Positions 19,348 through 49,985 of a stretch of DNA of 64,000 bases are shown in pieces. The notes beneath the pieces were generated by a model that had not been told where the DNA came from, did not search any database, and saw only the letters and a list, made by a program, of their open reading frames with translations. Origin of the DNA: Moorena sp. SIOASIH. GTDB lineage: Bacteria > Cyanobacteriota > Cyanobacteriia > Cyanobacteriales > Coleofasciculaceae. The DNA is taken from positions 805,053 to 869,052 of the forward strand of contig NZ_JAAHIH010000001.1 of assembly GCF_010671925.1 (NCBI RefSeq). Direction: 5' to 3'. The first letter of the stretch is position 1. Every line of letters begins with the position of its first letter. The translations under genes were made by a program, and so were the position numbers.

Positions 19348-19559
19348 TAAACTCCAATAATTTGTAACTCACCCAAGTAAAAACTGCTGTAATATAACCA
19401 ATGATATCCCATCGAAAAAGTGATGAAATAAACTAGAGATTAAGCTTAAACTGTTATTTTGGTAAGATTAGCTGGGAATTCTATAATATGATTATTGACT
19501 ATTGTGGAATCCCACAACTGTAAACCATTCGCAAGAGCTTATCTTAGTGATAAAAGACA

Positions 19560-19700: not shown

Positions 19701-19828
19701 AAGGGTCGTGTTGCACTTTTATGCGATTGACTCTAGCACTAGAACCTAAGTTGCTCAAGGCATGTCTGAGGCTGACCAAAAACCCGTGATTATCAAAGGT
19801 AAAATTAATAGTTTATTGGAGATGTCTA

Positions 19829-20689
19829 ATGAAGTTAAATAGCTGGTTCACCCTAGCTCTAGGGACGAGCCTAGCCATGTTGGTAAGCTGCACCCCCAAC
19901 ACCAACCAAGCCACCAATGTCCAACAAGCCCAGCAGGAAATCAAGATTACTGGGGCAGGGAGTCCCTATCCAGCAATGAAGGTATTAGCTACTGCCTATG
20001 AAGCCAAGACTGAAAACACAGTCATTACCTTTTTGCCAAAAAGTCAATCCCCTGGTGGAATCGCTGGCACTAAAGACAAATTGGTTGATATTGGTACTGT
20101 TACCAGGACTTTGAAACCAGAGGAGGATGATGGCTCTTTAGTATATCGGGAAATCGCCAAAGATGGTTTAGTAGTAGCAACTCACCCTAGTGTCGTAGGA
20201 GTAACCAATTTGCAAACCGAACAACTCAAGGCCATCTACAGCGGAAAGGTGACCAATTGGCAAAAGGTAGGGGGACCAGACGCAACAATTATCGTGCTGG
20301 ATCGACATGAAGATGAGTCAGCCAAGAAACTATTGCGGAAATACTATCTTGGATCAGACCTCAAGAATGCTCCAGAAGCAGTGATTTTGCGCCACGAAGC
20401 TGATTTAATTGCAGCGGTCCAGAGTACACCCTACAGCATCGGTGCTTTCTCCCTGGCCTATGCGATCGCTAATCAGCTACCTGTGAACCGCCTCAGTCTA
20501 GATGGCGTGGAACCCACCCCCGAAAACATTAAGTCAGGTAAATATAAAATGGCGCGTCGCCTTGGCATCGTCTACCGCCAGACCCCCTCAGATATCTCCC
20601 AAACCTTTATTGACTTCGCCTTTAGCAAAGAAGGAGGCAACCATCTGCTCGAATCAGGGTTCATACCATCTAGCCAGGAACAGGAGTAG
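19829..20689 (+). CDS. PstS-like (PBP superfamily, phosphate-binding-protein fold) periplasmic substrate-binding lipoprotein encoded immediately upstream of a hybrid kinase.
   Basis: Lipoprotein signal (LAMLVSC). Then [20 protein letters not shown]..., [16 protein letters not shown] and [12 protein letters not shown] motifs typical of PstS/PBP-like_2 proteins. Its stop is 8 nt before the kinase ATG at 20697. Confidence 0.75.
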
Positions 20690-20696
20690 TAGTGAC

Positions 20697-23261
20697 ATGT
20701 TCCGACAGATGTACTCGAAACTTTCCCTCAGAGCAAAAATACTATTGCCGATGCTCTTTGTGTTCCTGGGAATGTGGATAGTAGGAACCTTTAGTTTGGG
20801 CTATTTTTTCACTAAGCGTCTGGAACAGCAAGTGCAAGAGGAGATCGAGGACTTCTCATCCATACAATTGCATGCCTTTGAACAGGAAAAAGAAACTCTA
20901 TTTTTGAAAGCAAGGTGGATAGCTGACAGAGAGGATGTTTCCACATTAGTTGCAGCAGGGAACCGGCAAAAGCTGTTTCAGTATTTACTGCCGATACAGT
21001 TATCTTATCAGCTCGATCTGCTTAAACTCGTAGACAAGAACGGGTCTATATTGCTGGAACTGCGGCAGGCAGACCTTAACCAAGTTGAGCTACTCGACGA
21101 GACAGTCAACCAAGCGGCAAGCATTGGGATGGATTTGTTCGATTTCGTGCCAGCTGAAGACAATGCCCCATCGCTCCTAGTCGGTCTAACCTCGGTGAAG
21201 TCTGCCCAGGAAATCTTAGGGGGAATAATCGTTGGCATTACTATTAGCGATGAATGGCTCGAACAATTACGCCCCCATAGGCACCATCACCTCGTTACCT
21301 TCTATGATTCTCAGGTTACTGCCTCTACCTTAACCGATGCTAAAAATGCTCCTTGGCAGCCACCGCCAATCAAATCCCTACCAGTGCAGGTCACTATTGC
21401 CGAGAAAAACTACATTGCCAAAAGTGTAGAGATCACCGGGATCAATGGTAAGGGGGGCAAACTGGTTTTACTGTACTCCGCCGCACCTCTTGAGCAGGTG
21501 CAGGGAAAGTTGTGGTTCAGTATCAGTGCTTTGTGCTTGCTGGGGTCAGCAATTACCACCGTAGTTGCCAACAGGGTCACTTTCTTGATTACCCGTAACA
21601 TTCAACAAGTAACAGAGGTAGCCCAGCGCGTCACTCAAGATGATAATTTTACTCTACAAGCCCCGATCATATCCCAAGATGAAATAGGAGTCTTAGCCAC
21701 TTCTCTGAATCATCTTATTCAACAAGTAAAGCATCTTTTGGCATCCAAAGAAGCAGAAGTCCAACGTCAACAGCTCCTCAGCCAAGAATTACAAGCAGCT
21801 AAAGAAACCGCTGAAATTGCCAACCGTGCCAAAAGTGAGTTCCTGGCCAATATGAGTCATGAACTGCGCACTCCCCTCAATGGCATCCTCGGCTATACCC
21901 AAATCCTCCAACGCTCTAAAATCATGAGCCCTGAAGAACTCAAGGGCATCCGTGTCATCCACCAATGTGGCAACCACCTACTCACCCTGATTAACGATAT
22001 TTTAGACATTTCTAAAATCGAGGCTAAGAAAATGGAACTGTACCCAACCAATTTTCATTTTCCCTCCTTTTTAGAAAATCTAGTTGACATCTGCCGTATC
22101 CGCGCTGATCACAAAGATATTGTATTTATTTACCAACCCCAAAATCAACTCCCCAATCACATCCATGGCGATGAAAAACGCCTGCGACAAATACTAATTA
22201 ACTTACTGGGTAATGGGATTAAGTTTACTGACACTGGGACAGTGACTTTCAAGGTAAATGTCTTAGAGTCAAAGCCCTTAACAAAAGGAGAAGACAAAAA
22301 ACAAAACAACCATGGAATTTTGAGAACAATTCGGTTTCAAATTGAAGACACCGGTATTGGTATGAGTGCAGAACACATCGAACGCATAGTGTTGCCCTTT
22401 GAGCAGGTGGGGAATCCCTTAAGTCGAGCCGAAGGCACCGGATTAGGATTAGCCATTACTCAGAAACTGCTTGAAATGATGGGGTCTACTTTGGAAGTGC
22501 AAAGCCAGCTCGGTGTGGGCAGTTTATTTTGGTTCGATTTGAAGTTGCCAGAAGCCACAGAAGTAACTGATGCGATCGCTCCTAACAAGACAATTATTGG
22601 TTTCCTTGGCCAAGGCCGCAAAATTCTGGTGGTGGATGATAAACCGGAAAATCGCTGGGTACTGGTGAATCTGCTAGCTCCCCTTGGCTTTGAACTCGAA
22701 GAAGCGAGCCATGGTCAAGAGGGTTTACAGAAAGCCACACAGTTCCAACCGGATCTGATTATTACTGACTTGTTGATGCCACAGATGGATGGTTTTGAGA
22801 TGATCCGACAGTTGCGAGAATCCTCCCAATTCTCATCAGTATTAGTGATCGCTTGTTCAGCCAGTGTGTTTGATGATCACCAGCACCAAAGTAGTGAGGC
22901 TGGAGCAGATGATTTTTTGCCCAAGCCAGTAGAGTCAAAAAAGCTATTAGAGAAGTTACAGGTAAATCTGAAACTAGAATGGGTTTATGAAGAAGAAGAA
23001 GATAAAGATAAAAACCTCACGACCAAGGCACCATCCCCTCTCAAAACTGAAAAGTCGATGGTGCCGCCCTCAAAAGAAGCACTAGACCACCTGTACGATC
23101 TGGCGAAGACTGGCTTAATTAGCGAGATTTTAAAACAAGTGGAAATCCTGGAAAAATCTGATGATAAGTTAATCCCGTTCAGCCAACATCTCCGTCAATT
23201 AGCCGAAGACTTTAAACTCAAGAAAATTCGACAGTTTATTCAGCAATATCGGGATAAATAA
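20697..23261 (+). CDS. Hybrid sensor histidine kinase: TM, a periplasmic Cache-like sensor, TM, HAMP, HisKA, HATPase_c, REC, and the conserved C-terminal tail. The track ORF 20502-23261 overlaps the upstream gene; the likely start is the ATG at 20697.
   Basis: [31 protein letters not shown]1, a ~280-aa periplasmic domain, TM2, a HAMP-like segment, then a transmitter-REC-tail near-identical to the 16598 gene. Confidence 0.85.
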
Positions 23262-23273
23262 TAATTATAGCAA

Positions 23274-23853
23274 AGGGAGCAGGCAGTAGGGAGTAGGGAG
23301 TAGGGAGTAGGGAGTAGGGAGTAGGGAGTAGGGAGTAGGGAGTAGGGAGTAGGGAGTAGGGAACAGGGAACAGGAAAGTGGGAAAAGGGAAAAAATATTG
23401 TTTACCTCATTAGGCTATAAAAAGCTATAAATTCAAAAAATTTATTTATTCATAAATAAATAAATAAAACCAGGCATAAAACTCTATATTGTGTATAGCA
23501 ATCCGTGTAGGAATTGTGAGAATTTTTGTTCCCTACTCCCGTCTTGATGCAGTCGCTCATGGGGGAAACCACGGCAGTCGCTGGGGGAACGGCAGTCGCT
23601 CATGGGGGAGACCACGGCAGACCGCGAGTGGGGGAAACCACGGCAGACCGCGAGTGGGGGGAACCCCCAAGACCGCACTGCCTCCCCAAGACCGCGCTGC
23701 CTCCCCAAGACCGCGCTGCCTCCCCAAGACCGCGCTGCCTCCCCAAGACCGCGCTGCCTCCCCAAGACCGCGCTGCATCGCTACTCCCTACTCCCTACTC
23801 CCTACTCCCTGCTCCCTGTTCCCTGTTCCCTGTTCCCTGTTCCCTGTTCCCTT
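23274..23853. repeat. Complex intergenic repeat island. It contains (GGGAGTA)x~12 at 23274-23376, GC-rich ~29-nt repeats at 23556-23664, a 19-nt unit CCCCAAGACCGCGCTGCCT x6 at 23665-23778, and an inverted (TACTCCC)x3-(CTGTTCC)x6 array at 23779-23853.
   Basis: Read directly. The ORFs predicted on both strands here are repeat translations. Confidence 0.9.
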
Positions 23854-24033
23854 TGCTATAGGATTGATTCATAACTAATCCTACAGGTATATAGTTGCGG
23901 CAGAAGTACTGAATATTATCTTAAAAAAAATCCTACTACAGTTTTTTGTGTAATTAAAGGGAACAATTAAAGGGAAACAGTGAACATAATACTTTTGAAA
24001 AAGTAGCAAAAAATCAACTAGTTAATCGGAGCA

Positions 24034-27000
24034 ATGAAAACTATCAAACAAATTAGCCCTATAGCGGAAATAAACTACTTTCTAGCTATTTTTATACCTT
24101 TAACGATAGGGATAGGAAGTTTTCTAGTGCTCATGCATCGCACCGAGGTTAAGGTTGACACAACAGAAGTCAACCTTAATGAAATCCGTAATGTTGAGAT
24201 GGCAGCTCAACGAGCAGCTAGTGATTTCCATGTCATTGTATCAGACTTGAGATTCCTAGCCAATCAAAATGAGTTACGAGGAATGTTAGATAGCACCAGT
24301 GATGCTCTCCAAGAAACTGAAAAGTGGCGCATGGCTCTTACTCAAGAATATCTGATCCTGCTTCGAGAGAAAGGGCTTTATGACCAAATTCGCTTTCTGG
24401 ATACAACTGGTAAAGAAATTGTTAGAGTCAACTTTAACCAGGGTCAGCCGGTTATTGTGCCTGAGGAACAACTGCAAGTCAAGGCAAATCGTTACTGGTT
24501 TCAAAAAACCTTAGCTTTGCCAAAGGGAGAAATGTTTGTCTCTCCCCTAGACCTGAATGTCGAAAATGGAAAAATTGAACACCCCCTGAAGCCAGTAATT
24601 CGCGTTGGTAGCCCTGTGTTTGACAGTTATGGTCAGAAACGGGGCATCGTCATCATTAACTATTTTCCTAAACATTTCATCAATAGTTTGGAACCCGAAA
24701 ATAACACCTCTTTAGGGGAAATGATGCTGTTGAATGGTGAGGGATTTTGGCTGAAGGGAACCAACCCAGAGGATGAATGGGGATTCATGTATCCTAACCG
24801 CAAAGACCGTACCTTTGCCAAGGCGTTTCCAAAAGCATGGCAACGGATTTCTAAGGCTGATCACGGGCAGTTTGAAACTGCCAACGGTAAGTTTACCTTT
24901 ACCACTGTTCATCCTTTCTACGAGATGCAAACAGCTAAAACTGCTGTACAAAAGCGTTTTTCTGATCTCACTAGGATCGATGCTAACTCCGATACCTGGA
25001 AAATTGTCACCTACATTTCCCCTAAGGTGATAAATAAACGCTCCCGTGATTCCTGGAAGCCGCTAGGGCTGCTTTATGGTAGTTTAGTGGTGCTAATTGG
25101 TATTGGTTCTAGCTTACTAGCACGGGCTAAGGTAGAGCATCAGCACGCAGAAGAGGAACTGGGACTGAGTCAGGAACGCTTGCAGCTAGCCTTAGAAGGA
25201 TCCGGTGATGGACTCTGGGACTGGAACATCACGACTGGAGAGGTTTATTACAGTCCCCGGTGGTTAGAAATGCTGGGCTATGATGTGGATGAGCTACCAG
25301 GATACCTCAGCAGTTGGGAAAAGCTGATACATCCAGAGGATAAACCCTTGGTAAGGTCGTTGCTGAATGCTTGTCTAAAGAACAGTTCGGTTCTCTTTGC
25401 CTGTGACCATAGAGTACGAACCAAATCCGGTCAATGGAAATGGATTGCCATTTACGGTAAAGTGGTTGCTCATGATCACAAGGGCAACCCGAAACGAATG
25501 GCAGGAACCCATAAAGATATTAGCGATCGCAAACAGGCCGAGGAAGAACTGCGGCTGAGCAGAGAACGCTTTCGCACGCTCTATGAAAATACACCAGTTA
25601 TGCTGCATTCGATTGATAGCAATGGCAGATTGCTCAGTGTCAGTAACTACTGGCTTGAGAAGCTAGGCTACGAGCGTAGTGAAGTTATTGGAAGACAATC
25701 CACTGATTTTTTAACAGAATCACCCCAGTACGCCCAAGGGGTGTTTCTGCCTAAATGTTTTGAGACAGAAATGTGCTTGGATGTTCCCTATCAGGTGATT
25801 TGCAAGAATGGAGAAATCATTGACGTGCTTCTTTCCGCTATTGCTGAACAAGATGAGTTAGGTCAGGTGGTTCGGTCTCTAGCGGTTATGGTTGATGTCA
25901 CTGCTCGCAACCGAGCGGAAGCCGCACTGCAACATGCTAAAGAGGCTGCGGAAGTTGCCAATCGTGCCAAAAGCGAATTCCTGGCTAACATGAGCCACGA
26001 ACTAAGAACCCCCCTTAATGGTATCCTTGGCTACACCCAAATCCTCAAAAAGTCCAAAACCATGACCCCTGAGGAACTCAAAGGCGTCCACATCATTCAT
26101 CAGTGTGGTTCACACCTGTTAACCCTAATTAACGACATTCTGGATCTCTCCAAAATTGAAGCCAGGAAAATGGAACTCGTTCCTAGAAATGTTCATTTTT
26201 CCTCCTTTCTGGAAAACCTGGTTGACATCTGCTGTATCCGCGCTGATCAGAAGGACATTGTATTTACTTACCAACCCCTTTCTCAACTCCCCAATGGCAT
26301 CTATGGGGATGATAAACGCCTACGACAAGTACTGATGAACCTGCTAAGTAATGCCATCAAGTTTACCGACTCTGGGGAAGTAACCTTCAAAGTGAGTGTC
26401 CTTGAATCTACGCAAAATGATAACCCCCCATCACCCCCCTCCACCCGACCCTTCACAACGGAGGTAGACAATGGTCAAAAAGAGCTTAAGAAAGAACAAA
26501 GGACAAAAATCCGGTTTCAAGTAGAAGATACTGGGATTGGTATAACCCCAGAGCAATTAGAAACGATTTTTTTGCCCTTTGAGCAAGTAGGAAATCCCTT
26601 TCGCAAAGCAGAAGGGACAGGATTGGGATTAGCGATTACTCAGAAACTCTTGTCCATGATGAACTCTAGCTTAGAAGTAAGGAGCCAGCCCGGAATTGGC
26701 ACTGTGTTTTGGTTTGATTTGGAGTTGCCAGAAGCCACAGAAAGCTTAGATGCCCCAATGGCTTCTCAAACAGGGATCATTGGCTTCAAAGGTAAGGAGC
26801 GGAAAATCCTGGTAGTGGATGATCAATGGGAAAATCGCATGGTTTTGGTTAATCTGCTTGCCCCCCTTGGGTTTGAACTGGTGGAGGCAACCAACGGTCA
26901 AGAGGGTTTGGAGAAAGCTCAGTGTCAGCCTGACGTAATTATTACCGACTTGCTCATGCCAGGGATCGATGGTTGGGAATTAATCCGACAGCTGCGAGAA

Positions 27001-27426
27001 TCCCCCCAATTAAAGTCAGTAGTGGTGATTGCTTGCTCAGCCAGCGTATTTAATACTCACCAACACAAGAGTATTGAGTCTGGGGCGGACGAGTTTCTGC
27101 CCAAGCCAGTAGATTCAGAAAGACTATTCGAGATATTACGGATGCATCTGAGACTGGAATGGGTGTATGAAGGAAAAGAACAAGGAGAAAAGATGATGGC
27201 TGAAAACATCTCATGTCAAACTACAGAGATTATCCCTCCCCCAGCTGAAAAACTTGCTCAGCTCTATGATTTGGCCAGAACAGGCTTAATCAGCGAAATT
27301 TTAGAACAAGTGGATAATCTGGAAAAATCCGATGAAAAATTGGCGATTTTTGCCCAACATATCCAGCAATTCGCTCAAGGCTTTCAGGTCAAAAAAATCC
27401 AAGATTTCATCAAACAATACCTATAA
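24034..27426 (+). CDS. Hybrid sensor histidine kinase: TM, a ~330-aa periplasmic (Cache-like) domain, TM, two PAS domains, HisKA, HATPase_c, REC, and the conserved C-terminal tail.
   Basis: PAS signatures (LALEGSGDGLWDWNITTGEVYYSPRWLEMLGY; RFRTLYENTPVMLHSIDSNGRLLSVSNYWLEKLGY). The H-box [30 protein letters not shown]. The REC and tail ...[26 protein letters not shown]...VKKIQDFIKQYL. Confidence 0.85.
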   Translation: MKTIKQISPIAEINYFLAIFIPLTIGIGSFLVLMHRTEVKVDTTEVNLNEIRNVEMAAQRAASDFHVIVSDLRFLANQNELRGMLDSTSDALQETEKWRMALTQEYLILLREKGLYDQIRFLDTTGKEIVRVNFNQGQPVIVPEEQLQVKANRYWFQKTLALPKGEMFVSPLDLNVENGKIEHPLKPVIRVGSPVFDSYGQKRGIVIINYFPKHFINSLEPENNTSLGEMMLLNGEGFWLKGTNPEDEWGFMYPNRKDRTFAKAFPKAWQRISKADHGQFETANGKFTFTTVHPFYEMQTAKTAVQKRFSDLTRIDANSDTWKIVTYISPKVINKRSRDSWKPLGLLYGSLVVLIGIGSSLLARAKVEHQHAEEELGLSQERLQLALEGSGDGLWDWNITTGEVYYSPRWLEMLGYDVDELPGYLSSWEKLIHPEDKPLVRSLLNACLKNSSVLFACDHRVRTKSGQWKWIAIYGKVVAHDHKGNPKRMAGTHKDISDRKQAEEELRLSRERFRTLYENTPVMLHSIDSNGRLLSVSNYWLEKLGYERSEVIGRQSTDFLTESPQYAQGVFLPKCFETEMCLDVPYQVICKNGEIIDVLLSAIAEQDELGQVVRSLAVMVDVTARNRAEAALQHAKEAAEVANRAKSEFLANMSHELRTPLNGILGYTQILKKSKTMTPEELKGVHIIHQCGSHLLTLINDILDLSKIEARKMELVPRNVHFSSFLENLVDICCIRADQKDIVFTYQPLSQLPNGIYGDDKRLRQVLMNLLSNAIKFTDSGEVTFKVSVLESTQNDNPPSPPSTRPFTTEVDNGQKELKKEQRTKIRFQVEDTGIGITPEQLETIFLPFEQVGNPFRKAEGTGLGLAITQKLLSMMNSSLEVRSQPGIGTVFWFDLELPEATESLDAPMASQTGIIGFKGKERKILVVDDQWENRMVLVNLLAPLGFELVEATNGQEGLEKAQCQPDVIITDLLMPGIDGWELIRQLRESPQLKSVVVIACSASVFNTHQHKSIESGADEFLPKPVDSERLFEILRMHLRLEWVYEGKEQGEKMMAENISCQTTEIIPPPAEKLAQLYDLARTGLISEILEQVDNLEKSDEKLAIFAQHIQQFAQGFQVKKIQDFIKQYL

Positions 27427-27739
27427 CGTAATTAGTTAAGAGGTAAGCCTATGCGCTACAGATGGTGCTACTTTAGGTGCCCTCAGCTAACGCCCTACGC
27501 CCATGCTACCCTTGCCAGCGAGCCAATAGCCTACTTTCCGGCTAAGCAAACGCTCATTGATAATGAGAGCAAAGTTTTAGGGTTTAATGGGATTAACATT
27601 AATAAAATCCTATTTATACGGCTTAACTATTACGACTTAATGCTGATAGCTTTATGGTTAGGTTGATTAGGATTTATTATGAGCATTTAGTAACATTAAT
27701 TGGTTAATTGCTTTGACCACTCTATAAAAAGGTGTAACA

Positions 27740-29230
27740 ATGATCAATGGCCAGAATGAACAACTAATATTAATTGTAGATGATATCGCCACCAATTTAG
27801 AAGTACTATCCACTACATTGATCAGTGCTGGTTTCAAAGTTGCAGTCGCCACTGATGGCGAAAGCGCCATTGAACAGGTTGACTATAAACCGCCGGATCT
27901 GATTGTGTTAGATGTAATGATGCCAGGAATTGATGGATTTGAAACGTGCCATCGGCTGAAGGAAAATCCGTTAACCCGTGAAATTCCCGTGATTTTTATG
28001 ACAGCGCTGAGCGAGACCGTGAACAAGGTCAAGGGTTTTTCTCTTGGAGCAGTGGACTATCTGACCAAACCGATTCAGTCAGAGGAAGTATTAGCCAGAG
28101 TTAGAACCCATTTGCAACTGCAAAGTCAGGCAAAGGCCCTCAAGGAGCAAAATGCCCTTCTTAAAGAGGAAATTGAACAGCGAAGGTCAGCAGAAGCGAG
28201 GTGGCAAAACACCCTAGAACAGCTCGAAGCTGCCCAAAGCCAGATAATCGCCCAAGAAAAACTCGCTGCTCTTGGACAACTGGTTGCAGGAATCGCTCAC
28301 GAAATCAATACTCCCCTGGGAGCAATTCGCTCCTGTGTGGGCAATCTGTCTAACTTCTTCAACGACCACCTCCACCAATTACCCTCATTTTTTCAAGGAC
28401 TCTCGCCAGAACGTCAGTCGGATTTGTTGGCCTTACTCCAATACTCCAGCCGACAGACTACCCCTCTATCTACCCGAGAGCAACGTCAACTCAAACGAAG
28501 GTTGAAAAGCCAACTGGAATCCTACGCTATTGATAAAGCCGTAAAGCTAGCCAATTTATTAGCGGGAATTGGGGTTTATGAGGACTTCGAAGAGTTTTTG
28601 CCTCTCCTGAAAGACCCAGACAACGAAATGATTTTAACCACTGCCTATCAATTAGCTAACCTCTATACCAGTACGCGCAACATTACCACTGCCGTAGAAC
28701 GAGCTACAAAAGTGGTGTTTGCCTTGAAAACTTATGCTCGTTATGACTCTAGTGGGGAAAAGATAGATGCACAGATTACTGACGGGATTGACACGGTCTT
28801 GACTCTTTATCATAACCAACTCAAACATGGCGTAGACGTCTACAGAAACTATGACGATTCTTTGCCAGTTATCCGGTGCTATCCTGATGAACTCAATCAA
28901 GTCTGGACTAATCTGATTCACAATGCCCTCCAAGCCATGGAGAACAAGGGGAATTTAATCATTAATGTCAGGCAGGAAGATGACCAAATCAAGGTCAGCA
29001 TTACTGACACTGGCAAGGGGATTCCTCCTGAAATTCAGCCGAAAATCTTTCAGCCGTTCTTTACCACGAAACCCGCTGGAGAAGGCAGTGGCTTGGGATT
29101 AGATATTGTTAGGAAAATTGTAGAGAAACATCACGGACACATGGAGGTGGAGTCCGTACCCGGTGAAACTACCTTTACAGTTTCCCTACCGATTCAGCAG
29201 CCACACCCGATGGCTGAGGAGGTACATTGA
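27740..29230 (+). CDS. Response-regulator-receiver / histidine-kinase fusion (N-terminal REC, coiled coil, HisKA, HATPase_c).
   Basis: REC motifs (ILIVDD...DLIVLDVMMPGIDG...KP). The H-box AGIAHEINTPLGAI. An ATPase domain (DTGKGIPPEIQPKIFQPFFTTKPAGEGSGLGLDIVRKIV). Confidence 0.85.
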   Translation: MINGQNEQLILIVDDIATNLEVLSTTLISAGFKVAVATDGESAIEQVDYKPPDLIVLDVMMPGIDGFETCHRLKENPLTREIPVIFMTALSETVNKVKGFSLGAVDYLTKPIQSEEVLARVRTHLQLQSQAKALKEQNALLKEEIEQRRSAEARWQNTLEQLEAAQSQIIAQEKLAALGQLVAGIAHEINTPLGAIRSCVGNLSNFFNDHLHQLPSFFQGLSPERQSDLLALLQYSSRQTTPLSTREQRQLKRRLKSQLESYAIDKAVKLANLLAGIGVYEDFEEFLPLLKDPDNEMILTTAYQLANLYTSTRNITTAVERATKVVFALKTYARYDSSGEKIDAQITDGIDTVLTLYHNQLKHGVDVYRNYDDSLPVIRCYPDELNQVWTNLIHNALQAMENKGNLIINVRQEDDQIKVSITDTGKGIPPEIQPKIFQPFFTTKPAGEGSGLGLDIVRKIVEKHHGHMEVESVPGETTFTVSLPIQQPHPMAEEVH

Positions 29231-36741: not shown

Positions 36742-38225
<1,484 letters not shown>

Positions 38226-40598: not shown

Positions 40599-41156
40599 AT
40601 GATGGCGGTTTTGCGACTTGAAGATGGTACAACCTATACCGAGCTAAGTGATATTGCCCAAGAATTAGCGCCTCTGAAGGTTCAGCTAAATCACTGGTCT
40701 GTAGGGGACAACCCAGAAATTAAAACCCTTCTAGAGCAAGACACCCTTAGTGATATTGAAAAGGAGACAGTACTTAAAGCTTTAGATAGCTACTTTGAAC
40801 AACTTAAGGAAACCGCTGGCTATCAATCCCGTGACTTAATCGTTCTTTACCCAGACTTACCTAATCTTGATGCCCTCCTTTCCAAATTTAAGGATTGTCA
40901 CTACCATACTGATGATGAAGTGCGCTACATAGTTTCTGGAGAAGGGGTTTTTGGGTTTGTACGTCCTGATGGCAGCCAAATGGAGTTGACTGTGCAGCCT
41001 GAGGAGTACATTAATGTCCCAGCGAATACTGAACATTGGTTTTATCTGACACCATCACGACGGGTTAAAGCTGTGCGCTACTTTATCACTACTGAAGGCT
41101 GGGTTCCGGAGTACACGGGTACAGAAATTCGGATGAAGCCGGTAGTAGCTGTTTGA
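40599..41156 (+). CDS. mtnD: Acireductone dioxygenase (1,2-dihydroxy-3-keto-5-methylthiopentene dioxygenase).
   Basis: ARD cupin signature (CHYHTDDEVRYIVSGEGVFGF...HWFYLT). 185 aa. Confidence 0.85.
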   Translation: MMAVLRLEDGTTYTELSDIAQELAPLKVQLNHWSVGDNPEIKTLLEQDTLSDIEKETVLKALDSYFEQLKETAGYQSRDLIVLYPDLPNLDALLSKFKDCHYHTDDEVRYIVSGEGVFGFVRPDGSQMELTVQPEEYINVPANTEHWFYLTPSRRVKAVRYFITTEGWVPEYTGTEIRMKPVVAV

Positions 41157-41184
41157 GAATATCCGAGTTCATAACTTATTTAAT

Positions 41185-42428: not shown

Positions 42429-44605
42429 ATTAGAGTCGATGCTGGGGATTAGCCCAGGCACCTCTCCTTCAAAGCCGTGCGTGAAACTTTCGCCTCACAC
42501 GGCTCCTAGATTCTCTCAACCTTTCGGCTTGTCTTTCGACTTGCTCCAGTGAATCTGTTGGTGGCAACTTTGGTGAACAGCCATAAGGTTGTCTCTCTTC
42601 CAGTTGTTATGATTTTCATCGATGTGGTGGAGGTGGACTCTTTCCTCATCTATGAATTTCATTCCACAGTATCCACAGGAATGGTTTTGTTTGGTCATCG
42701 CCTTGGATGTATGATTGTCGTATAGCGCACTGTTTCGTTTGCTCCAATATACTAGGTCTCCGTCATAGGGGGACTTAGTTCCTGTGACCATCTTATGTCC
42801 AAAAAGTTTTGTTTTCACTGCTGGGAAAGCTTTTTTACATAGTTCTTTAGCTTCATGTCGGTTCATTTTCTTTTCCTTTCGGAATTTTCTATTTGCCGCG
42901 TAGTTTAGGAACCATAGGCTATCCCGAGAATTGCTCATATCACACCATTTGTGATAGTTTCGCCATCCTCTTACAATGGGGGCTAACTTCTTTGCTTTGA
43001 CTTTTGCACCATAATTCGAGCTGTTGACTACGGTTTTAATCTTCTCACGTATTTTCCTATGATTGTCCGCTGAGGGCTTACAATGGAATTTTCCGTTTTT
43101 CTTGACCCGCATATGCCAGCCAAGGAAGTCGAATCCGTTTGTCGTTTTAGTTATCTTGGTCTTTTCTTGACTGATTTCAAGACCTCGTTCCTTTAAGAAG
43201 TCTTCTACTTTTTGTAGAATTTTCCTGGCATCATCTTTTGGTTTTAGAAAAATTATCATGTCGTCCGCGTAACGGACTGATGGGTGTATTTTTTCTATTC
43301 CGTCAAGTGCGATGTTGGCTAAAAGTGGGCTGACTATTCCTCCCTGGGGCGTTCCTTGTTCATGGAATTCCGGATTGATGCCAGCTTTTAAACATCTGAA
43401 TATCCCCTTCTTCAGATTAGCTGGGGCTAACAACCTATCCATAATGGATTTATGGGAGATGCGGTCAAAACACTTTTTGATATCTAGCTCGATTACCCTT
43501 TTTGTACTGCCTTTCTTTGCTGCATTCAGGTTGGTGAATACATATTGTTGGGCATCATGCGCACTGCGTCCAGTCCTAAACCCGTAACTCCGAGCGTGAA
43601 AGGTAGCTTCGTGTGCAGGTTCCAAGGCGTATTTCACTAGACATTGCCATGCTCGGTCAGCGATGGTTGGGATTTTCAGCATTCTGATTTTCCCATTCTT
43701 TTTAGGGATTGGTACTGCTCTGAGTCCGCTATGTATCCAGTTATGGCCATATTGGTTTAGCTGTTCCGTTAATTCGATTCGCTGACGGTAATTGAGGCTT
43801 TTTCTTCCATCAATACCAGCAGTGCGTTTTCCCTGATTTAGTTTCGTCACTTGACGGACGGCCAATAGCTGTGCTGAACGGGATTTCATGATCAGTTTCT
43901 GTAGAGACCTGACTTTCCTCAAGTCACCAGCTTGAACCGCTTTATATATTCTTCGTTGTAGGCGGAATAAGTTTTGGCGGAGTTTTTTCCACTTTTGACT
44001 TTTCCATAGTTCGCTATATCTGTTTGACATGCGTCTAACCGTACTCTACGTTTGTTGAACATATTCTGAGAACCCGTGCCCAGTTTTGAGCACATCTTAC
44101 CCGACAGTGGGGATTGAGTCTGGCATGACTTACTGAAGGTTCGACCAGCCTTCAGACCCATTTATCGCTGTCGTTTTTACTCGTTCCGTCTAGTGGATTG
44201 TTTCGGCGATTTAGGTCAGCCCACTTTGCCTATTCCCCTCTCAGAGATTACGGATGTCATGTCAAAAACTCCGTGAGAGTAGAGAATTTCTTCCACATGT
44301 TTTATTCAGGTTGTGGTTGGCTATTTAGACACTTTTATAGGACTACTTAAACCATGTCGCCTCCCCGTTAGCGCCAGTGTTGTTACCTGCTTATGGTCAA
44401 CTGATTGCGCCCTGTTGCCAGCGTCACTCTGGAGGAATGCCGTCCACCTCGGTGTGGCCAGATAGGGAGTCATATGTCTCCTCATAGGATGGACTTTCAC
44501 CATCATCCGCTAGACAGTTAGAACTTTTGAGGTTTTAATTCCTCGCGAGTCCCCCAACCCATACCCCTCTATTCTCTAGAGGCTCCTGATTGGAACGAGC
44601 CGCAC
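42429..44605 (-). mobile_element. Group II intron (IIB-like, with an RT-maturase-HNH intron-encoded protein), copy 1, minus strand.
   Basis: The 5' end is GUGCGGCUCGUUCC (reverse complement of 44592-44605). A domain V hairpin and the domain VI ...CAUCGACUCUAAU 3' end lie near 42429-42500. It encodes an intact intron-encoded protein. Confidence 0.85.
42516..44030 (-). CDS. Group II intron reverse transcriptase / maturase with a C-terminal HNH endonuclease domain.
   Basis: RT motifs including YADDMIIF, a maturase X domain, and an HNH (CGYCGMKF...HLHHID.NH..W...NL...H..CH). Confidence 0.9.
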   Translation of the reverse strand: MSNRYSELWKSQKWKKLRQNLFRLQRRIYKAVQAGDLRKVRSLQKLIMKSRSAQLLAVRQVTKLNQGKRTAGIDGRKSLNYRQRIELTEQLNQYGHNWIHSGLRAVPIPKKNGKIRMLKIPTIADRAWQCLVKYALEPAHEATFHARSYGFRTGRSAHDAQQYVFTNLNAAKKGSTKRVIELDIKKCFDRISHKSIMDRLLAPANLKKGIFRCLKAGINPEFHEQGTPQGGIVSPLLANIALDGIEKIHPSVRYADDMIIFLKPKDDARKILQKVEDFLKERGLEISQEKTKITKTTNGFDFLGWHMRVKKNGKFHCKPSADNHRKIREKIKTVVNSSNYGAKVKAKKLAPIVRGWRNYHKWCDMSNSRDSLWFLNYAANRKFRKEKKMNRHEAKELCKKAFPAVKTKLFGHKMVTGTKSPYDGDLVYWSKRNSALYDNHTSKAMTKQNHSCGYCGMKFIDEERVHLHHIDENHNNWKRDNLMAVHQSCHQQIHWSKSKDKPKG

Positions 44606-44675
44606 TAACACTATTAGAATCCTGAACAGCGACAGTTGTTACTCAGAACTCAGCACTCTTAGACTCAAAACTATT

Positions 44676-45383
44676 GTGAATCGAGTTGTATTCTGCGACT
44701 TCGACGGTACCATTACCGCCGTTGAAACCTTTGTGGGCATGCTCAAACAATTTGCTCCCGAGTTGTCCGCCCAAATTATGCCCCAGCTGTACAGTATGAA
44801 GCTGACTCTAAGGGAAGGTGTGCGCCAGATGTTAGAGTCAATTCCTTCAGCCAGCTATCGTGAAATTATTGCCTAGGCCCAATCCAAACCGATTCGGCCT
44901 GGTTTAGAGCAATTGTTAGACTTTCTTGATACTCAGAATGTCCCTTTTATTGTCGTTTCCGGTGGTTTGCGCTGCATGGTCGAAACGGTTCTGAGTCAGG
45001 GAAGCACGGGGAAAAAACCTTTACTTGAGCCGGTAGCAGCTATTTATGCTGTTGATGTGGAAACGACCGGGGATTTTCTCAAGGTAACCTCTGAGTTTGA
45101 AGGAAATACAGAACTTGTGTCTAAAGTGCAAGTGATGGCACAACACCCGGCTCAAGAGCAGATCGCCATTGGGGATTCGGTAACGGACTTGAATATGAGC
45201 CTGAGAGCCCCCGTAGTATTCGCCCGCGATCGCCTCAGCAAATACCTGGACGAGCGCCAAAAGCCCTACATTCCGTGGGATGATTTTTTTGATGTACAAC
45301 AAAAGCTATCCCAGCGGTGGAACAGTCAACAACTCACCGCTAAGTCTTGTGAGACTATAGCGGGAGCTTGTGAAAGCTCATAG
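44676..45383 (+). pseudogene. mtnX: HAD-family 2-hydroxy-3-keto-5-methylthiopentenyl-1-phosphate phosphatase (MtnX-like) interrupted by an in-frame TAG at 44874-44876.
   Basis: HAD motif I (FCDFDGTIT) lies in the first ORF (44676-44876) and the GDSVTD motif in the second (44913-45383). Both are in the same frame, separated by one TAG codon. The gene is flanked by two inverted group II introns. Confidence 0.65.
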
Positions 45384-45507
45384 TTGACCAGACTAAGACC
45401 GTTCTAATGGTCTACGTTATTCGAGTCATAACACCTGTAGATGCGTGCCAGTCTTCAGCTCTGTTGTTAACAATTAAACATCTGTAGTGAGTTAAGGAAG
45501 TGTTGTT

Positions 45508-47803
45508 GTGCGGCTCGTTCCTAGGAGGAGCCTCCAGAAACTGGAGGGGTATGACTAGGGGGACTCGCGAGGACTATCCCTCAAAAGTTCTAACTGTTCG
45601 TCGGATGCAGGTGAAAACCCTGCCCTTTAAGAGATAAGTGACTCCCTACCTTGGCCACACCGAGCGGGCGGCAACTCCGCAGAGTGACGCTGGCACCAGG
45701 GCGCAATCAGAACCGAAGCAGATAGGTAACACTGGCGCTAATGGGGAGGCGACATGGGTAAAGTAGTCCTAGAAAAATGTCTAACTTCCAAGCCACAATC
45801 TGAAACAAAATGTGCGACTTTATCATTTTATTCTCACAGCGTTCTAACAACGATAGCTGTAATCTCTGAGAAAAGGATAGGCAAATTGGGAACGAAGTTA
45901 CCGCAAGAATAGTGGAGCCTTTATAGTTAGAGGGTTATGGGAAAAAGGGTTAAAAATTTTGTAGTAAGGCTCCACTATTCTAAGGTTTCATCTCCGGACT
46001 GCCCTAAATCCCCAAAACAATCTGACAGACGGAACGAGTAAAAACGACAGCATATTGGGTCTGAGGAGTAGTCGAACCTCAGTAAGTTATGCCAAACCTA
46101 ATCCCCACTGTCGGGTAAGATGCCACCGGAAACTGGTGGCGGGTATCCAGAATACACGAAACTAATGAAGAGCATGGGTAGACACATGTCAAAAAGATAT
46201 AGTGACCTATGGAAAAGCCAAAAGTGGAAACAACTCCGCCGGAATCTTTTCCGCCTACAGAAGCGAGTGTACAAAGCGGTTCGAGATGGTGACCTGAGGA
46301 AAGCTAGGTCTCTACAAAAACTAATTCTGAAATCCCGCTCAGCACAACTGCTGGCAGTCCGTCAAGTGACTCAGCTTAATCAAGGAAAAAGAACAGCCGG
46401 AGTAGATGGGAAAAAATCCCTAACCTACAAAGAACGGTTCGAGGTACTTAAAAGACTAGGCGACCGTGCGGAAAACTGGACGCACCAAGGGTTGAGGGAA
46501 ATCCCAATACCCAAGAAAAACGGGAGCACGAGAATGTTAAAGGTACCGACAATCCAAGATAGGGTATGGCAATGTTTAGCAAAATTCGCCCTTGAACCAG
46601 CCCACGAGGCAACGTTCAGTGCCTTCAGCTACGGGTTTAGGACAGGCAGATGTGCCCAAGACGCACAAAAGCTATTATTCCTAAATTTAAAATCAGATAG
46701 AAATGGCATAAATAAAAGGGTAATCGAGTTAGATATCAAGAAGTGCTTTGACCGCATCTCCCATAGCTCCATTATGGATAGATTGCTAGCACCTGCGGGT
46801 CTGAAACTGGGGATATTTAGATGTCTAAAAGCAGGCATCAATCCGGAATTCTATGATGAAGGAAGAGGCACACCCCAGGGAGGAGTAGTCAGCCCACAAA
46901 AGCGCCAATATTGCACTTGATGGAATAGAAGAAATCAACAAAGGCATCAGAAGCATTAGATATGCGGACGACCTGGTGATTATACTCAAGCCAAAAGATA
47001 ACGCTGAAAAGGTTTTAGAAAAAGTGAAAAACTTCTTAACTCAACGTGGATTAGAAGTAAATCAAGAAAAGACCAAGTTAACCAAAACGACAGACGGATT
47101 TGACTTCCTGGGTTGGAAGTTTCGAGTCCAGAAAAACGGAAAATTCCGGTGCATTCCCTCTGTGGAAAACCACCGGAATATCCGAAAGAAGATTAAAGCC
47201 GTGGTGAATAGCTCGAATTATGGTGCCGAAGTAAAAGCTCAAAAATTAGCCCCAATCGTACGTGGATGGAGGAACTACCATAAAAGCTGCGACATGAGCA
47301 GTTCCCGAGATAGTTTATGGTTCATGAATAAAACCGCAAACCGTAAATTCCGCAAGGAAAAGAAAATGAACCGGCGTAAAGCCAAGGAACTATGCAAGAA
47401 AGGCTTTCCAGCAGTTGGGTACAAACAAAATCAACACGTGAACGTCAAAGGAACTAAGTCCCCGTATGACGGAGACCTAGTCTACTGGAGTATGCGGAAC
47501 TCCGGACTATACGATGGTGCTACCGCCAAAGCTTTGGATAGGCAAAACCATTCCTGTGGACATTGTGGACACAAGTTCTTAAGCAACGAATATGTACATC
47601 TTCATCACATCGATGGAAACCACGACAATTGGAAGCATAAGAACCTAATGGCAGTACACCAAAGCTGTCACCAGATGATTCATTGGAGCAAGCCGAAAGG
47701 CAAGCCTATTGGTTGAGGATACTTAGGAGCCGTATGAAGGGAAACCTTCACGTACGGTTCTGGAGCGGAGGTGCTCCCCGTAATAGGGGACATCGACCGT
47801 AAT
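45508..47803 (+). mobile_element. Group II intron, copy 2, plus strand. It is about 75-80% identical to copy 1 and its intron-encoded protein is frameshifted.
   Basis: The 5' end is GTGCGGCTCGTTCC at 45508. Domain V GAGCCGTATGAAGGGAAACCTTCACGTACGGTTC is at 47727-47760. Domain VI and the 3' end ...CATCGACCGTAAT are at 47803. Confidence 0.8.
46120..47716 (+). pseudogene. Group II intron RT-maturase-HNH disrupted by a +1 frameshift near 46895 (track ORFs 46120-46920 and 46976-47716).
   Basis: The protein reads ...TPQGGVVSPQKRQYCT* in one frame, while ANIALDGIEEINKGIRSIRYADDLVIILKPKD continues in the +1 frame. Compared with copy 1 there is one extra nucleotide (CAAAAGC against CTTTTA). Confidence 0.7.
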
Positions 47804-47867
47804 AACCTAAAAAGCTCTTATAACATTGTCAAGGCAAACTTTACCCACTTGTGGAGTGTTCAAAGTA

Positions 47868-49151
47868 ATGCGAGTTTTCGTGCTAGATAAAAACAAACAA
47901 CCATTAGATCCATGCCATCCAGCACGGGCTAGGGAGTTACTTAAAAAAGGGAGGGCTAAAGTCTTTAAGCGTTATCCATTTACTATAATCATGCAAGACA
48001 GGGATGTTGAGAATTCTGTTACTCATCCACACAGAATCAAGATAGACCCTGGATCTAAAACAACCGGGATTGCCATCGTTCAGAAAAAAACTGGACGGGT
48101 CACAAGCGCCTTGGAAGTTAATCACAGAGGACAGAATATCAAAAACTCTCTGGAATCCAGAAGAGCTTTAAGGCGAGGTAGGCGAAATAGAAAGACTCGT
48201 TACCGCAAACCTCGGTTTCTCAATCGAAAACGCCCAGGAGGGTGGCTGGCTCCATCGCTAATGAGTCGAGTATTTAATATTGAGACTTGGGTAAGACGGC
48301 TAAGGAAGCTGTGCCCAATAACCACCATATCTCAAGAATTAGTCCGGTTTGATACTCAAAAAATGCAAAATCCCGAAATATCGGGTGTAGAGTATCAACA
48401 CGGTGAACTGTTTGGGTTTGAGGTGAAAGAATATCTGCTTGCCAAGTGGGGTTATAGCTGTGTTTACTGTGGAGCAGAGAACGTCCCCTTGGAGGTTGAA
48501 CACATTACTCCAAAATCTATTGGAGGGACTAATAGAGTCAGCAACCTAACCTTGGCTTGCCGACCTTGTAATCAAAAGAAAGGTAGCGATCTGATTGAGA
48601 AATTTTTACGTAAAAAGCCGGAACTTCTAAAAAAAATACTGGCATTGGGTAAATCCCCCTTGAAAGATGCAGCAGCAGTTAACTCAACTCGTTGGGAAGT
48701 ATGGAGGAGGCTGCAACTGACTGGATTACCTGTTGAAACAGGTTCTGGTGGTCTGACTAAGTTCAATCGTAAAACCAGAGAGATTGAGAAAACCCATTGG
48801 ACTGATGCTGCTTGTGTAGGTAAATCCACTCCTCAGACATTACTACTAAATGGAGTGAAACCGCTAATAGTTACAGCTAAAGGTCACGGGGTGCGCCAAA
48901 GATGTCGTCCAAATAAATATGGCTTTCCAAAAGCTCATGCGCCTGCCGCTAAGTTTTTCAAAGGTTTCCAAACGGGCGATATTGTCAAAGCTGATATCAA
49001 AAGAGGGAAGTATGCCGGTCAATACACAGGACGAATAGCAATTCGCCATCGTCCTAGTTTTGCACTCTCTACTCCAGAAAAGAAAATTGATGTACATCCA
49101 AAGTATTTACAAACAATTTTCAAAGCTGACGGCTATGAATACGCGAGTTAA
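47868..49151 (+). CDS. iscB: IscB: OMEGA-system RNA-guided nuclease (PLMP domain, split RuvC, Arg-rich bridge helix, HNH).
   Basis: An N-terminal MRVFVLDKNKQPLDPCHPARARELLKKGRAKVFKRYPFTI (PLMP-type). RuvC-I IDPGSKTTGIAIV. The bridge RRALRRGRRNRKTRYRKPRF. RuvC-II SQELVRFD. The HNH CVYCGAENVPLEVEHITPKSIGGTNRVSNLTLACRPCNQKKG. RuvC-III HWTDAAC. About 427 aa from the ATG at 47868. Confidence 0.8.
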   Translation: MRVFVLDKNKQPLDPCHPARARELLKKGRAKVFKRYPFTIIMQDRDVENSVTHPHRIKIDPGSKTTGIAIVQKKTGRVTSALEVNHRGQNIKNSLESRRALRRGRRNRKTRYRKPRFLNRKRPGGWLAPSLMSRVFNIETWVRRLRKLCPITTISQELVRFDTQKMQNPEISGVEYQHGELFGFEVKEYLLAKWGYSCVYCGAENVPLEVEHITPKSIGGTNRVSNLTLACRPCNQKKGSDLIEKFLRKKPELLKKILALGKSPLKDAAAVNSTRWEVWRRLQLTGLPVETGSGGLTKFNRKTREIEKTHWTDAACVGKSTPQTLLLNGVKPLIVTAKGHGVRQRCRPNKYGFPKAHAPAAKFFKGFQTGDIVKADIKRGKYAGQYTGRIAIRHRPSFALSTPEKKIDVHPKYLQTIFKADGYEYAS

Positions 49152-49159
49152 ATTAATCA

Positions 49160-49290
49160 ATGATTCGCGCTTGGCCTATGGCCACGCGGGGCGCGTTCGC
49201 TGGCCTATGGCCACGCATTCGCGTTCAATTTATTCTCCTGCGGGAATTCCCCTCCCGCTAAAACTAACGTTTATAACGGGAGTCCCCTTC
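49160..49290. repeat. Cluster of short hairpins and direct repeats downstream of iscB; a candidate IS200/IS605-like right-end structure.
   Basis: TGGCCTATGGCCACGC occurs twice (each a 5-bp-stem palindrome). GCGGGAATTCCCCTCCCGC and ACGGGAGTCCCCTTCCCGT are hairpins. Confidence 0.35.
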
Positions 49291-49301
49291 CCGTATTTAA
49301 G

Positions 49302-49985
49302 ATGGTTAATCATGGCTCCTCAATCCGAAATCACCACCAATTACTATCAGCAATTGATCCAAGACCAACTTTAATCAGTGCTGCCAGCCACTTTTATCAA
49401 TTAGGTTGGATGGTGGGCACAGCCGGTAACCTTTCTGCTAAACAGCCCGATGGCAGCTTCTGGATTACTGCGAGTGGATGCCATAAAGGGCAGCTAGGCA
49501 GCAAAGACTTTATTCCCATAGCCACTGATGGCAGGGTGGTAGAAAAACCATCACCTGAATCTCGTCCTTCAGCTGAAACAAGCATTCATCAAAGTATCTA
49601 CTCTTTATTCCCAGATGCTAAAGCCTGTTATCATATTCACACCATTGAGTCGAATTTAGTTTCTGGCTTTACTAAAGAAGATACTCTGCCTTTGCCGCCG
49701 CTAGAAATGCTTAAGGGATTTGGAGTACGGGAGGAGAACCCCCAAGTCACGGTACCAGTATTCGTCAACCATCTGGATGTGTCTCGCATTAGTAGTGAGA
49801 TATGCGATCGCTTTCAGGCTGCACCACCATCAATCAATCTCCTATTAATTCGGAACCACGGTATAACGGTTTGGGCGTCTTCCACCGAACGTGCCCAGAT
49901 CTACTTGGAGTTAGCCGATTATATTTTTCGATATATGGTAGCTGCTCGACAAATTGAGCTTAACACCACTTCCATCAAGAATTAA
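49302..49985 (+). CDS. mtnB: Class II aldolase/adducin-family protein, probably the methylthioribulose-1-phosphate dehydratase MtnB.
   Basis: GTAGNLSAK phosphate-binding motif and HIHT zinc-ligand motif. Located in the mtn cluster. Confidence 0.7.
   Translation: MVNHGSSIRNHHQLLSAIDPRPTLISAASHFYQLGWMVGTAGNLSAKQPDGSFWITASGCHKGQLGSKDFIPIATDGRVVEKPSPESRPSAETSIHQSIYSLFPDAKACYHIHTIESNLVSGFTKEDTLPLPPLEMLKGFGVREENPQVTVPVFVNHLDVSRISSEICDRFQAAPPSINLLLIRNHGITVWASSTERAQIYLELADYIFRYMVAARQIELNTTSIKN

Follow-up and report, generated by a model that had tools for sequence, protein, structure and literature searches.

The window analysed here is a stretch of 64,000 nucleotides from the cyanobacterium Moorena sp. 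SIOASIH (contig NZ_JAAHIH010000001.1, positions 805,053 to 869,052 of the forward strand). Its methionine-salvage operon is interrupted at 45325-49301 by a non-autonomous ISC (IscB/HEARO) transposon of the IS200/IS605 superfamily, and the omega-RNA gene of this transposon is in turn split by a group II intron. The insertion is recent and lies exactly on the mtnX/mtnB junction, one base upstream of the mtnB start codon. The identity of the individual parts, namely the element, the omega-RNA gene, iscB, and the intron, is near certain. For the locus as a whole, we lean slightly towards an ISC transposon whose split omega-RNA is predicted to make arming of the nuclease dependent on splicing. The parts of the insertion and its immediate flanks are as follows.

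45305-45324, plus strand: predicted guide segment GCTATCCCAGCGGTGGAACA, host DNA from the 3' end of mtnX, directly 5' of the scaffold
45325-49301, plus strand: whole insertion of 3,977 bp, a 1,681-bp ISC/IscB transposon plus a 2,296-nt group II intron
45325-45507, plus strand: omega-RNA exon 1, starting with the RF02033 match (nhmmer profile positions 1-182), also the transposon end on the guide side
45508-47803, plus strand: group II intron A (2,296 nt), in sense orientation within an omega-RNA helix
47804-47867, plus strand: omega-RNA exon 2 (nhmmer profile positions 183-250), up to the iscB start codon
47868-49151, plus strand: intact iscB open reading frame (ORF) of 427 amino acids, with NCBIfam, Pfam, and PDB matches
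49152-49301, plus strand: transposon end downstream of iscB, with two TGGCCTATGGCCACGC repeats, a GGCC hairpin in each, and two subterminal hairpins
49240-49258, plus strand: subterminal hairpin GCGGGA..TCCCGC (DNA fold)
49276-49294, plus strand: subterminal, terminal-most hairpin ACGGGA..TCCCGT (DNA fold)
49302-49305, plus strand: ATGG target site, presumed target-adjacent motif (TAM), its ATG being the mtnB start codon

The ends of the element are defined by alignment to an empty site. This site was reached via P0121, a MtnB homolog with 92% identity, which led to the metagenome scaffolds L081-L084; they share 92-95% DNA identity with the window and a common gene order (thiC, ftsH, mtnD, mtnW, mtnX, mtnB, and a Na/Ca exchanger gene). 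Exact-protein look-ups with the IscB and MtnB of the window found no record. Homology to L081 ends at window position 45324 and restarts at 49302, with zero bases duplicated. The empty site reads ...GGTGGAACA/ATGGTTAA, where the slash marks the joint; it can also be written ...GGAACA/ATGGTTAA, the base before the target being A (A/ATGG), and the L081 sequence across the joint is ...CCCAGCGGTGGAACA/ATGGTTAATCATGG.... As the flanking bases are unlike on either side, the element boundaries cannot slide and the ends are unambiguous. The element starts with GTCAAC, where the HEARO model also has its first position, and terminates in ...CCCGTATTTAAG. Without the intron it measures 1,681 bp and consists of the HEARO/omega-RNA gene, iscB, and a hairpin-rich end; this is the usual size of an ISC element (PMC4810608). 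The sequence-only reading had placed the element at 47804-49300, which captures only the 3' part of the insertion, while its position for iscB between mtnX (44676-45383) and mtnB (49302-49985) was correct.

Further copies occur in Moorena genomes, where paralogous elements with IscBs of 78-97% identity sit at unrelated loci with unrelated flanks and share their termini. The related set comprises 80 IscB genome loci. ATGG directly follows the element in all 11 copies of the subfamily (10 related copies and the window). The left flanks of the 10 related copies are unrelated to one another, and all differ at the position of the guide.

At the end next to ATGG, the 150 nucleotides after the iscB stop codon fold into four hairpins with -32.6 kcal/mol (DNA fold; z = -4.85 versus shuffles) and contain two families of direct repeats. 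The last ~48 nucleotides, including ...CCCGTATTTAAG, are conserved at the ends of related copies, and the terminal hairpin ACGGGA..TCCCGT is kept in all of them. Terminal inverted repeats were not found in the element. Hairpins and direct repeats at 49160-49290 had been proposed to form an IS200/IS605-type right end. Their nature as such an end is borne out; Meers et al. (PMC10055086), however, use "right end" for the omega-RNA side and "left end" for the TAM-adjacent hairpin side, so that the name has to be exchanged. The same region varies among relatives: in L024 (7703-7748 and 8294-8339), L001 (7386-7589), and L016, 200-300 extra nucleotides lie between the post-iscB region and the terminal hairpin. 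In L024, the terminal 46 nucleotides and an identical flank are present twice, 591 nucleotides apart, which points to a duplication of the end together with its target.

The omega-RNA gene begins at the first base of the element. A covariance-model search, one of the checks proposed with the sequence-only reading, places Rfam RF02033 (HEARO) at 45325-45568 on the plus strand with 86.6 bits against a gathering score of 83 on the genomic sequence, 2.3 kb upstream of iscB. This match barely passes because its 3' third (45508-45568) is wrongly aligned to intron sequence, an artefact, and the large distance to iscB arises because the group II intron splits the gene. Exon 1 is 92-98% identical to the uninterrupted HEAROs of the related loci L001, L002, L003, L016, and L024, and 90% identical to that of L009. 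Exon 2 (ATAACATTGTCAAGGCAAACTTTAC) corresponds to the 3' portion of the HEARO consensus. When 45325-45507 and 47804-47867 are spliced in silico, the product aligns end to end with the regions preceding iscB in Moorena, without a gap at the junction; its identity is 96.8% to L001, 94% to L002, and 89-92% to L003, L009, L016, and L024. The RNAs of the uninterrupted relatives score 132-149 bits on RF02033. The effect of removing the intron was measured with an nhmmer DNA profile built from 12 uninterrupted relatives, window excluded: the spliced sequence reaches 263.9 bits over profile positions 1-250, whereas the contiguous genomic sequence reaches 188.4 bits over positions 1-182, and positions 183-250 begin exactly at 47804.

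The intron site coincides with a conserved structural element of the RNA. In the RNAalifold consensus of 13 sequences, compensatory changes are seen at 31 of the 77 pairs. Columns 187 and 188 border the intron site, which lies within the 3' strand of helix 145-153:182-190, where most pairs carry 5-6 double changes, and which is also spanned by the long-range helix 94-104:198-208. The intron thus interrupts a covarying helix, and the scaffold cannot form without joining of the exons. By comparison with characterised IscBs, the guide would comprise about 16-20 nucleotides ending at 45324; the 16-mer is unique within the window. A second HEARO was not found in the window. One candidate fragment beside a second group II intron (44545-44620, minus strand) was rejected, as the shared sequence is the introns' own 5' end, starting 4 nucleotides before GTGCG.

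Two further features of the omega-RNA genes emerged from the alignments. One 24-nt insertion, TTCGCGCAAGCGTGTGCTTTGCAC, is shared by L016 (5945-5968) and L012, where it separates the conserved ATTGTC from AGGCAAAC (aligned columns 216-239); the two genes are otherwise different and score 132-138 bits on HEARO despite the insertion. Moreover, the omega-RNA gene is 92-94% identical between the window and L002 or L003, while synonymous sites of iscB are near saturation (dS 1.3-1.5 at 85% amino acid identity). The omega-RNA would accordingly appear either far more constrained than the silent sites of iscB or exchanged between copies.

The intron within the omega-RNA gene and its relative upstream (introns A and B) contain the following features. 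EBS denotes an exon-binding site of the intron, IBS the complementary intron-binding site in the exon, and IEP the intron-encoded protein.

45784-45789, plus strand: candidate EBS2 ACTTCC of intron A, complementary to IBS2 GGAAGT (45496-45501), in a variable loop between segments conserved with intron B
45846-45851, plus strand: candidate EBS1 AACAAC of intron A, complementary to IBS1 GTTGTT (45502-45507)
46186-47716, plus strand: reverse transcriptase (RT)/maturase/HNH gene (IEP) of intron A, with a single +1 frameshift at 46897-46903
42429-44605, minus strand: group II intron B (2,177 nt), antisense, in the spacer between mtnW and mtnX, with an intact 504-amino-acid IEP (RT/maturase/HNH) at 42516-44030

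Intron A has the GUGYG and AY boundaries of a group II intron, with GTGCG at 45508 and ...TAAT ending at 47803. Rfam RF00029 (Intron_gpII, domain V/VI) matches at 47725-47803 on the plus strand with 60.3 bits against a gathering score of 40, and the uninterrupted relatives align gap-free over the 45507/47804 junction. The candidate EBS2 and EBS1 lie in domain-I loops and form a perfect complement to exon positions -12 to -1. Such a perfect match makes retrohoming into the omega-RNA sense strand the most likely route by which intron A arrived. Intron B carries TGACAT where EBS1 aligns, and this hexamer pairs with the end of its exon, GTGTTA, through 4 Watson-Crick and 2 G-U pairs. The IEP gene of intron A is broken. 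RVT_N and RVT_1 are found in one ORF, while the RVT_1 tail, GIIM, and HNH are found in the next (Pfam); the YADD motif is present. In a tblastn alignment with the intact IEP of intron B, the frame is +1 up to 46896 and +2 from 46904, with 7 nucleotides where 6 are expected. The two IEPs are 73-74% identical and the introns 74-76% identical in DNA, and Moorena genomes hold dozens of IEPs related to that of intron A.

The presence of an intron in an omega-RNA gene looks like a one-off rather than the mark of a specialised lineage. None of the 80 related IscB loci has an intron in its omega-RNA, and a metagenome scan for the exon-1/intron junction GTTAAGGAAGTGTTGTTGTGCG, limited to exact matches, returned one unrelated chance match. 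A lineage specialised on omega-RNA genes was rejected, as the closest retrievable relatives of intron A (81-82% nucleotide identity; L086, L087, and L088) sit in unrelated exons; "closest retrievable" excludes the introns of two closer maturases, P0241 and P0245, which were not located. Intron A itself contains a perfect 16-bp inverted repeat, AGAATAGTGGAGCCTT ... AAGGCTCCACTATTCT, forming a 76-nt hairpin at 45906-45981. The hairpin lies within a segment of ~106 nucleotides (about 45890-45995) that is missing from the closest related introns; the intron in L024 contains a segment of 75% similarity, located elsewhere (2501-2602). Neither the window nor the fetched loci yielded a further copy. 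Intron A may thus harbour a small mobile hairpin element.

Downstream of the intron, the iscB gene encodes a complete protein. The uninterrupted ORF spans 47826-49151 on the plus strand, and 427 amino acids are counted from the ATG at 47868, in agreement with the ~427 residues first read from the sequence. The protein covers all 314 positions of the NCBIfam equivalog NF040563 (guided_IscB) with 470.2 bits against a cutoff of 175, a profile check that lends no support to a different HNH/RuvC family. Pfam adds RRXRR over positions 1-174 of 174 (6.7e-75, 251 bits), HNH_5, and HNH. Among PDB sequences, phmmer retrieves only chains of IscB, IsrB, and small Cas9s (TbaIscB 1.5e-42, HfmIscB 1e-27, OgeuIscB 1e-23), and a profile of 27 homologs improves the E-values to 1e-50 through 2e-30. 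All motifs previously noted are present. The PLMP-type N-terminal motif reads QPLDP, and residues 1-122 align from the start of the PLMP regions in 9K30, 9K2Z, and 7XHT. The Arg-rich bridge helix corresponds to residues 98-122 (RRALRRGRRNRKTRYRKPRF). The RuvC residues are D60 in IDPGSKTTG, E157 in SQELV, and H310/D313 in HWTDAAC, and the HNH residues H212/N226/N235 form an H-N-N variant. All of these putative catalytic residues are intact and align to the motifs of OgeuIscB, HfmIscB, and TbaIscB; they are invariant across the 27 homologs except for D60, which is kept in at least 90%. The ratio of nonsynonymous to synonymous substitution rates (dN/dS) is 0.05-0.19 against seven related copies. 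The protein family is thus under purifying selection, which fits a working nuclease, and the complete IscB may perform RNA-guided, TAM-dependent cleavage as predicted from its sequence. The earlier proposal of an active nuclease is therefore upheld with regard to intact residues and selection, but has to be amended with regard to the guide: the omega-RNA gene is split by an intron with a frameshifted maturase, so that guiding would need splicing.

These observations suggest the following course of events. Read-through from the mtn operon, with which the element is co-oriented, would yield an RNA carrying the 3' end of mtnX as guide, followed by the scaffold. The intron would be spliced out, and the religated scaffold would bind IscB. 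The complex would then recognise a match to the guide followed by ATGG, which is the scarless joint expected to remain after excision by a Y1 TnpA transposase acting in trans. Cleavage of this joint and recombinational repair from a sister copy would retain the element. Homing and retention by cutting of the donor joint have been shown for GstIscB and TnpB, and the same paper describes the shared TAM (PMC10055086). The occupied site would be safe from cutting, because GTCAAC and not ATGG follows the guide match. Guide-RNA production would depend on splicing, and since the intron's own maturase is frameshifted, a related maturase would be needed in trans; an intact one, encoded by intron B, lies about 1.5 kb upstream. 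The IscB protein is translatable with or without splicing, because its ORF lies wholly in the sequence from exon 2 onward. Before splicing, the intron and the scaffold would compete for the same bases, as IBS1 and IBS2 lie in a strand of the omega-RNA helix. In view of the broken maturase, we judge the chances roughly even that useful amounts of spliced omega-RNA are made. The strongest form of the proposal, in which a functional scaffold arises only after group II splicing and both arming of the nuclease and retention of the transposon are gated by a second, unrelated selfish element and a trans-acting maturase, is tentative, and we hold it to be rather unlikely.

Several findings weigh against the splicing-dependent account. 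With the maturase of intron A frameshifted and the nearest intact one only 73-74% identical, splicing in trans is uncertain. The C-terminal ~105 amino acids of IscB (residues ~322-427), the presumed TAM-binding domain, match no solved IscB by sequence in the PDB profile search, although they are conserved within the subfamily in the 27-homolog alignment. An AlphaFold2 model from the 27-sequence alignment is too poor to use (pLDDT, the per-residue confidence, 53.4; pTM, the global score, 0.46; C-terminal third below 50). As this domain is unmatched and the model unusable, ATGG as the nuclease TAM is deduced from insertion sites alone. Finally, no TnpA was detected in the window, so that excision, and hence the need for homing, hangs on a gene not seen there. 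Neither motif regex nor tblastn found a Y1 (HUH) TnpA in the window, as had been stated before, or within 6 kb of the 80 related loci; this is a weak test, with an IS608 TnpA sequence as the tblastn query and no positive control. A solo iscB is the norm, as only ~1.5% of iscB genes lie near tnpA (PMC10055086), and a non-autonomous status, shared by most iscB elements, agrees with the lack of a detected cis TnpA.

The main competing explanation is that the locus is a disarmed relic, a true IscB transposon whose omega-RNA has been killed by an unspliced intron, leaving IscB without a usable guide and the copy heading to decay. We consider this a substantial possibility that stays below even. It draws on the position of the intron inside a helix that needs the exon-2 bases AAC to close, on the +1 frameshift of the maturase, on the low identity (73-74%) of the nearest intact one, on the nonsense codon in the adjacent mtnX, which indicates that the locus tolerates damage, and on the failure to find another intron-carrying copy among the 80 related loci or in the exact-match metagenome scan. 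Against decay stand the intact iscB ORF with all its catalytic residues, the 95-98% identity of both omega-RNA exons to working-looking copies, and the preserved ribozyme hallmarks and EBS/IBS pairs of the intron. Moreover, the maturase gene bears a single lesion, so any inactivation would be very recent, and many related maturases exist in Moorena genomes.

A second alternative concerns the host. IscB could have been recruited by it, for example for regulation or protection of the methionine-salvage operon, with loss of mobility; the sequence-only reading had considered recent domestication. We regard this as very improbable. The co-orientation of the element within the operon and the lack of a detected transposase in the window are compatible with it. 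However, the orthologous site is empty in a relative with 92-95% identity, which speaks for a recent insertion rather than a domesticated gene. Its ends and its ATGG target are the same as in paralogous copies at unrelated loci, a solo iscB is typical of the family (PMC10055086), and the insertion harms the mtnX C-terminus and removes the mtnX/mtnB overlap without adding an evident function. The affected host genes are as follows.

44676-45383, plus strand: mtnX, with an in-frame TAG at 44874-44876; a 19-codon, element-derived tail takes the place of the final two codons and the stop
49302-49985, plus strand: mtnB, methylthioribulose-1-phosphate dehydratase, intact (TIGR03328, 186 bits against a cutoff of 137)

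In the 95%-identical relative L081, a Tyr codon stands at the position of the mtnX TAG, and mtnX ends in ...SQRWNNG followed by a TAA stop that overlaps the ATG of mtnB (ATGGTTAA). The insertion splits an AAT codon, and mtnX of the window reads 19 codons into the element (...WNSQQLTAKSCETIAGACESS and stop). The overlap of mtnB with the mtnX stop is lost; its ATG is kept but now lies behind element sequence, and the protein is 92% identical to P0121. This pattern suggests that mtnX has only recently become a pseudogene; mtnD, mtnW, and mtnB appear intact. Eight other host genes in 17 kb syntenic with L081 have full-length ORFs that equal, or nearly equal, their L081 counterparts in length, and the frameshift and TAG lesions are therefore unlikely to be assembly noise.

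The weakest alternative, that the protein is an ordinary HNH endonuclease or a group II intron-related HNH protein that is not RNA-guided, has Pfam HNH domains and older homolog annotations (McrA or HNH endonuclease) in its favour but is virtually eliminated by the full-length guided_IscB equivalog and RRXRR matches, the alignment of RuvC I/II/III residues to solved IscBs, and the cognate HEARO RNA upstream.

The system resembles those of OgeuIscB (PDB 7XHT, 7UTN) and GstIscB in the order of PLMP-type N-terminus, RuvC-I, bridge helix, RuvC-II, HNH, and RuvC-III. It further agrees with them in a scaffold (RF02033 HEARO) encoded upstream on the same strand, a guide taken from the flank, and a predicted target that is the element's own empty site. 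In contrast, the third HNH position is Asn, the C-terminal ~105 amino acids are unmatched, the presumed TAM is ATGG, and a 2.3-kb group II intron splits the RNA gene; compared to OgeuIscB, the protein is also about 70 amino acids shorter. Among transposons, the element corresponds to the ISC class of Kapitonov et al. 2016 (PMC4810608): non-autonomous, about 1.3-1.7 kb, with IscB only and subterminal hairpins. Within this class, the cyanobacterial ISC1-1_MA has 5'-GTCA termini and an N/ATGA target (PMC4810608). The window element shares the 5'-GTCA start, the lack of a duplication, and the insertion directly upstream of an ATGN tetranucleotide, but its target is ATGG instead of ATGA and its end ...TTTAAG instead of ...CG. 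Taken together, the sequence shows all sequence-testable defining features of IscB/HEARO and ISC except a cis TnpA, which makes it non-autonomous; its C-terminal TAM-binding domain is putative.

Two precedents exist for the encounter of an intron with such an element. IStrons, which combine a group I intron with IS200/605/607 elements and TnpB, likewise carry a self-splicing intron and a guide RNA on one transcript, competing for nucleotides (10.1101/2023.11.20.567912; PMC13521648). Their group I ribozyme is an integral, co-evolved part that removes the whole element from host mRNA, whereas in the window a group II intron is a secondary invader of the guide-RNA gene at one locus, and splicing would produce the guide instead of abolishing it. 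Anabaena and Nostoc provide the other precedent, with group II introns located inside IS605 elements (PMC4810608, Fig. S9). These, too, are RT-maturase-HNH introns in an IS200/IS605-superfamily element of a filamentous cyanobacterium; they concern IS605 generally, while the intron of the window sits within the scaffold of an IscB omega-RNA. In the open-access and bioRxiv literature searched, no description of an IscB omega-RNA gene containing an intron came up.

A weaker point of novelty is the placement of copies of this subfamily directly before start codons, brought about by their ATGG target. In 7 of 10 distinct insertions, including the window, the target ATG opens an ORF of at least 64 amino acids, against an expectation of ~5% for random ATGs. 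They include a SecG-like ORF (L001), an AroC-like ORF of 370 amino acids (L010), and mtnB; right flanks named for this pattern are those of L001, L002, L010, L016, L024, and the window at 49302. The elements thus sit exactly before start codons and co-oriented with the gene, for which target preference and survivorship are both possible sources. Start-codon adjacency as a general rule for IscB was rejected, as the Scytonema, Tolypothrix, Microcoleus, Thiomargarita, and Chloroflexota subfamilies end at ...GGTGA-type or other sites without an ATG pattern.

Further observations concern the surroundings of the element. Intron B is antisense to the operon and cannot be spliced from the operon transcript. 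Its site is uninterrupted in L081 (...CCTATAG/TAATACTATTG...). A convincing EBS2/IBS2 match was not found for it, though its EBS1 candidate pairs with the exon, and intron B may be an ectopic insertion. A promoter and terminator scan of 44400-49500 returned no more sites than shuffled sequence. The same operon shows another indel polymorphism: L081 (6762-8005) contains a TerB-like ORF of 159 amino acids on the minus strand between mtnD and mtnW, which is absent from the window (41157-41184), and a 69-nt piece of mtnD (window 40786-40854) is repeated at L081 6982-7050. Upstream, a thiamine pyrophosphate (TPP) riboswitch at 38122-38218 on the minus strand (71.6 bits) precedes thiC (36742-38115), an ordinary and expected arrangement. 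Six large genes for sensor histidine or hybrid kinases (MASE3/PAS, CHASE, HAMP, and PAS types), with a PBP-like gene among them, occupy 10884-29230 on the plus strand, and upstream of them 5775-9821 encodes a TPS/TPR/CHAT protein of 1,348 amino acids; all of these appear to be ordinary host genes.

The IscB assignment alone adds little, as NCBI already lists 85%-identical Moorena homologs as "RNA-guided endonuclease IscB" and Rfam includes HEARO. The element family is well known, and the locus is a cleanly delimited representative whose one unusual trait is the nested insertion; both IscB and its RNA belong to a known kind, and the intron-split guide gene is a locus-specific curiosity. The locus nevertheless provides a clean natural example, with an exact empty site, a predicted guide, an ATGG target coinciding with a start codon, and damage to the host operon that can be measured, in which three layers of selfish DNA are stacked: an intron in a guide-RNA gene, in a transposon, in an operon. 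For annotation pipelines, it teaches that an omega-RNA may lie kilobases away from its iscB. If the split omega-RNA is indeed spliced and used, it would to our knowledge be the first guide RNA of a Cas9-family nuclease that needs removal of an intron. The locus would then represent a group II/IscB counterpart of the interplay between intron and guide in IStrons, with the opposite logic that splicing makes the guide, and it would offer a natural template for splicing-gated guide RNAs.

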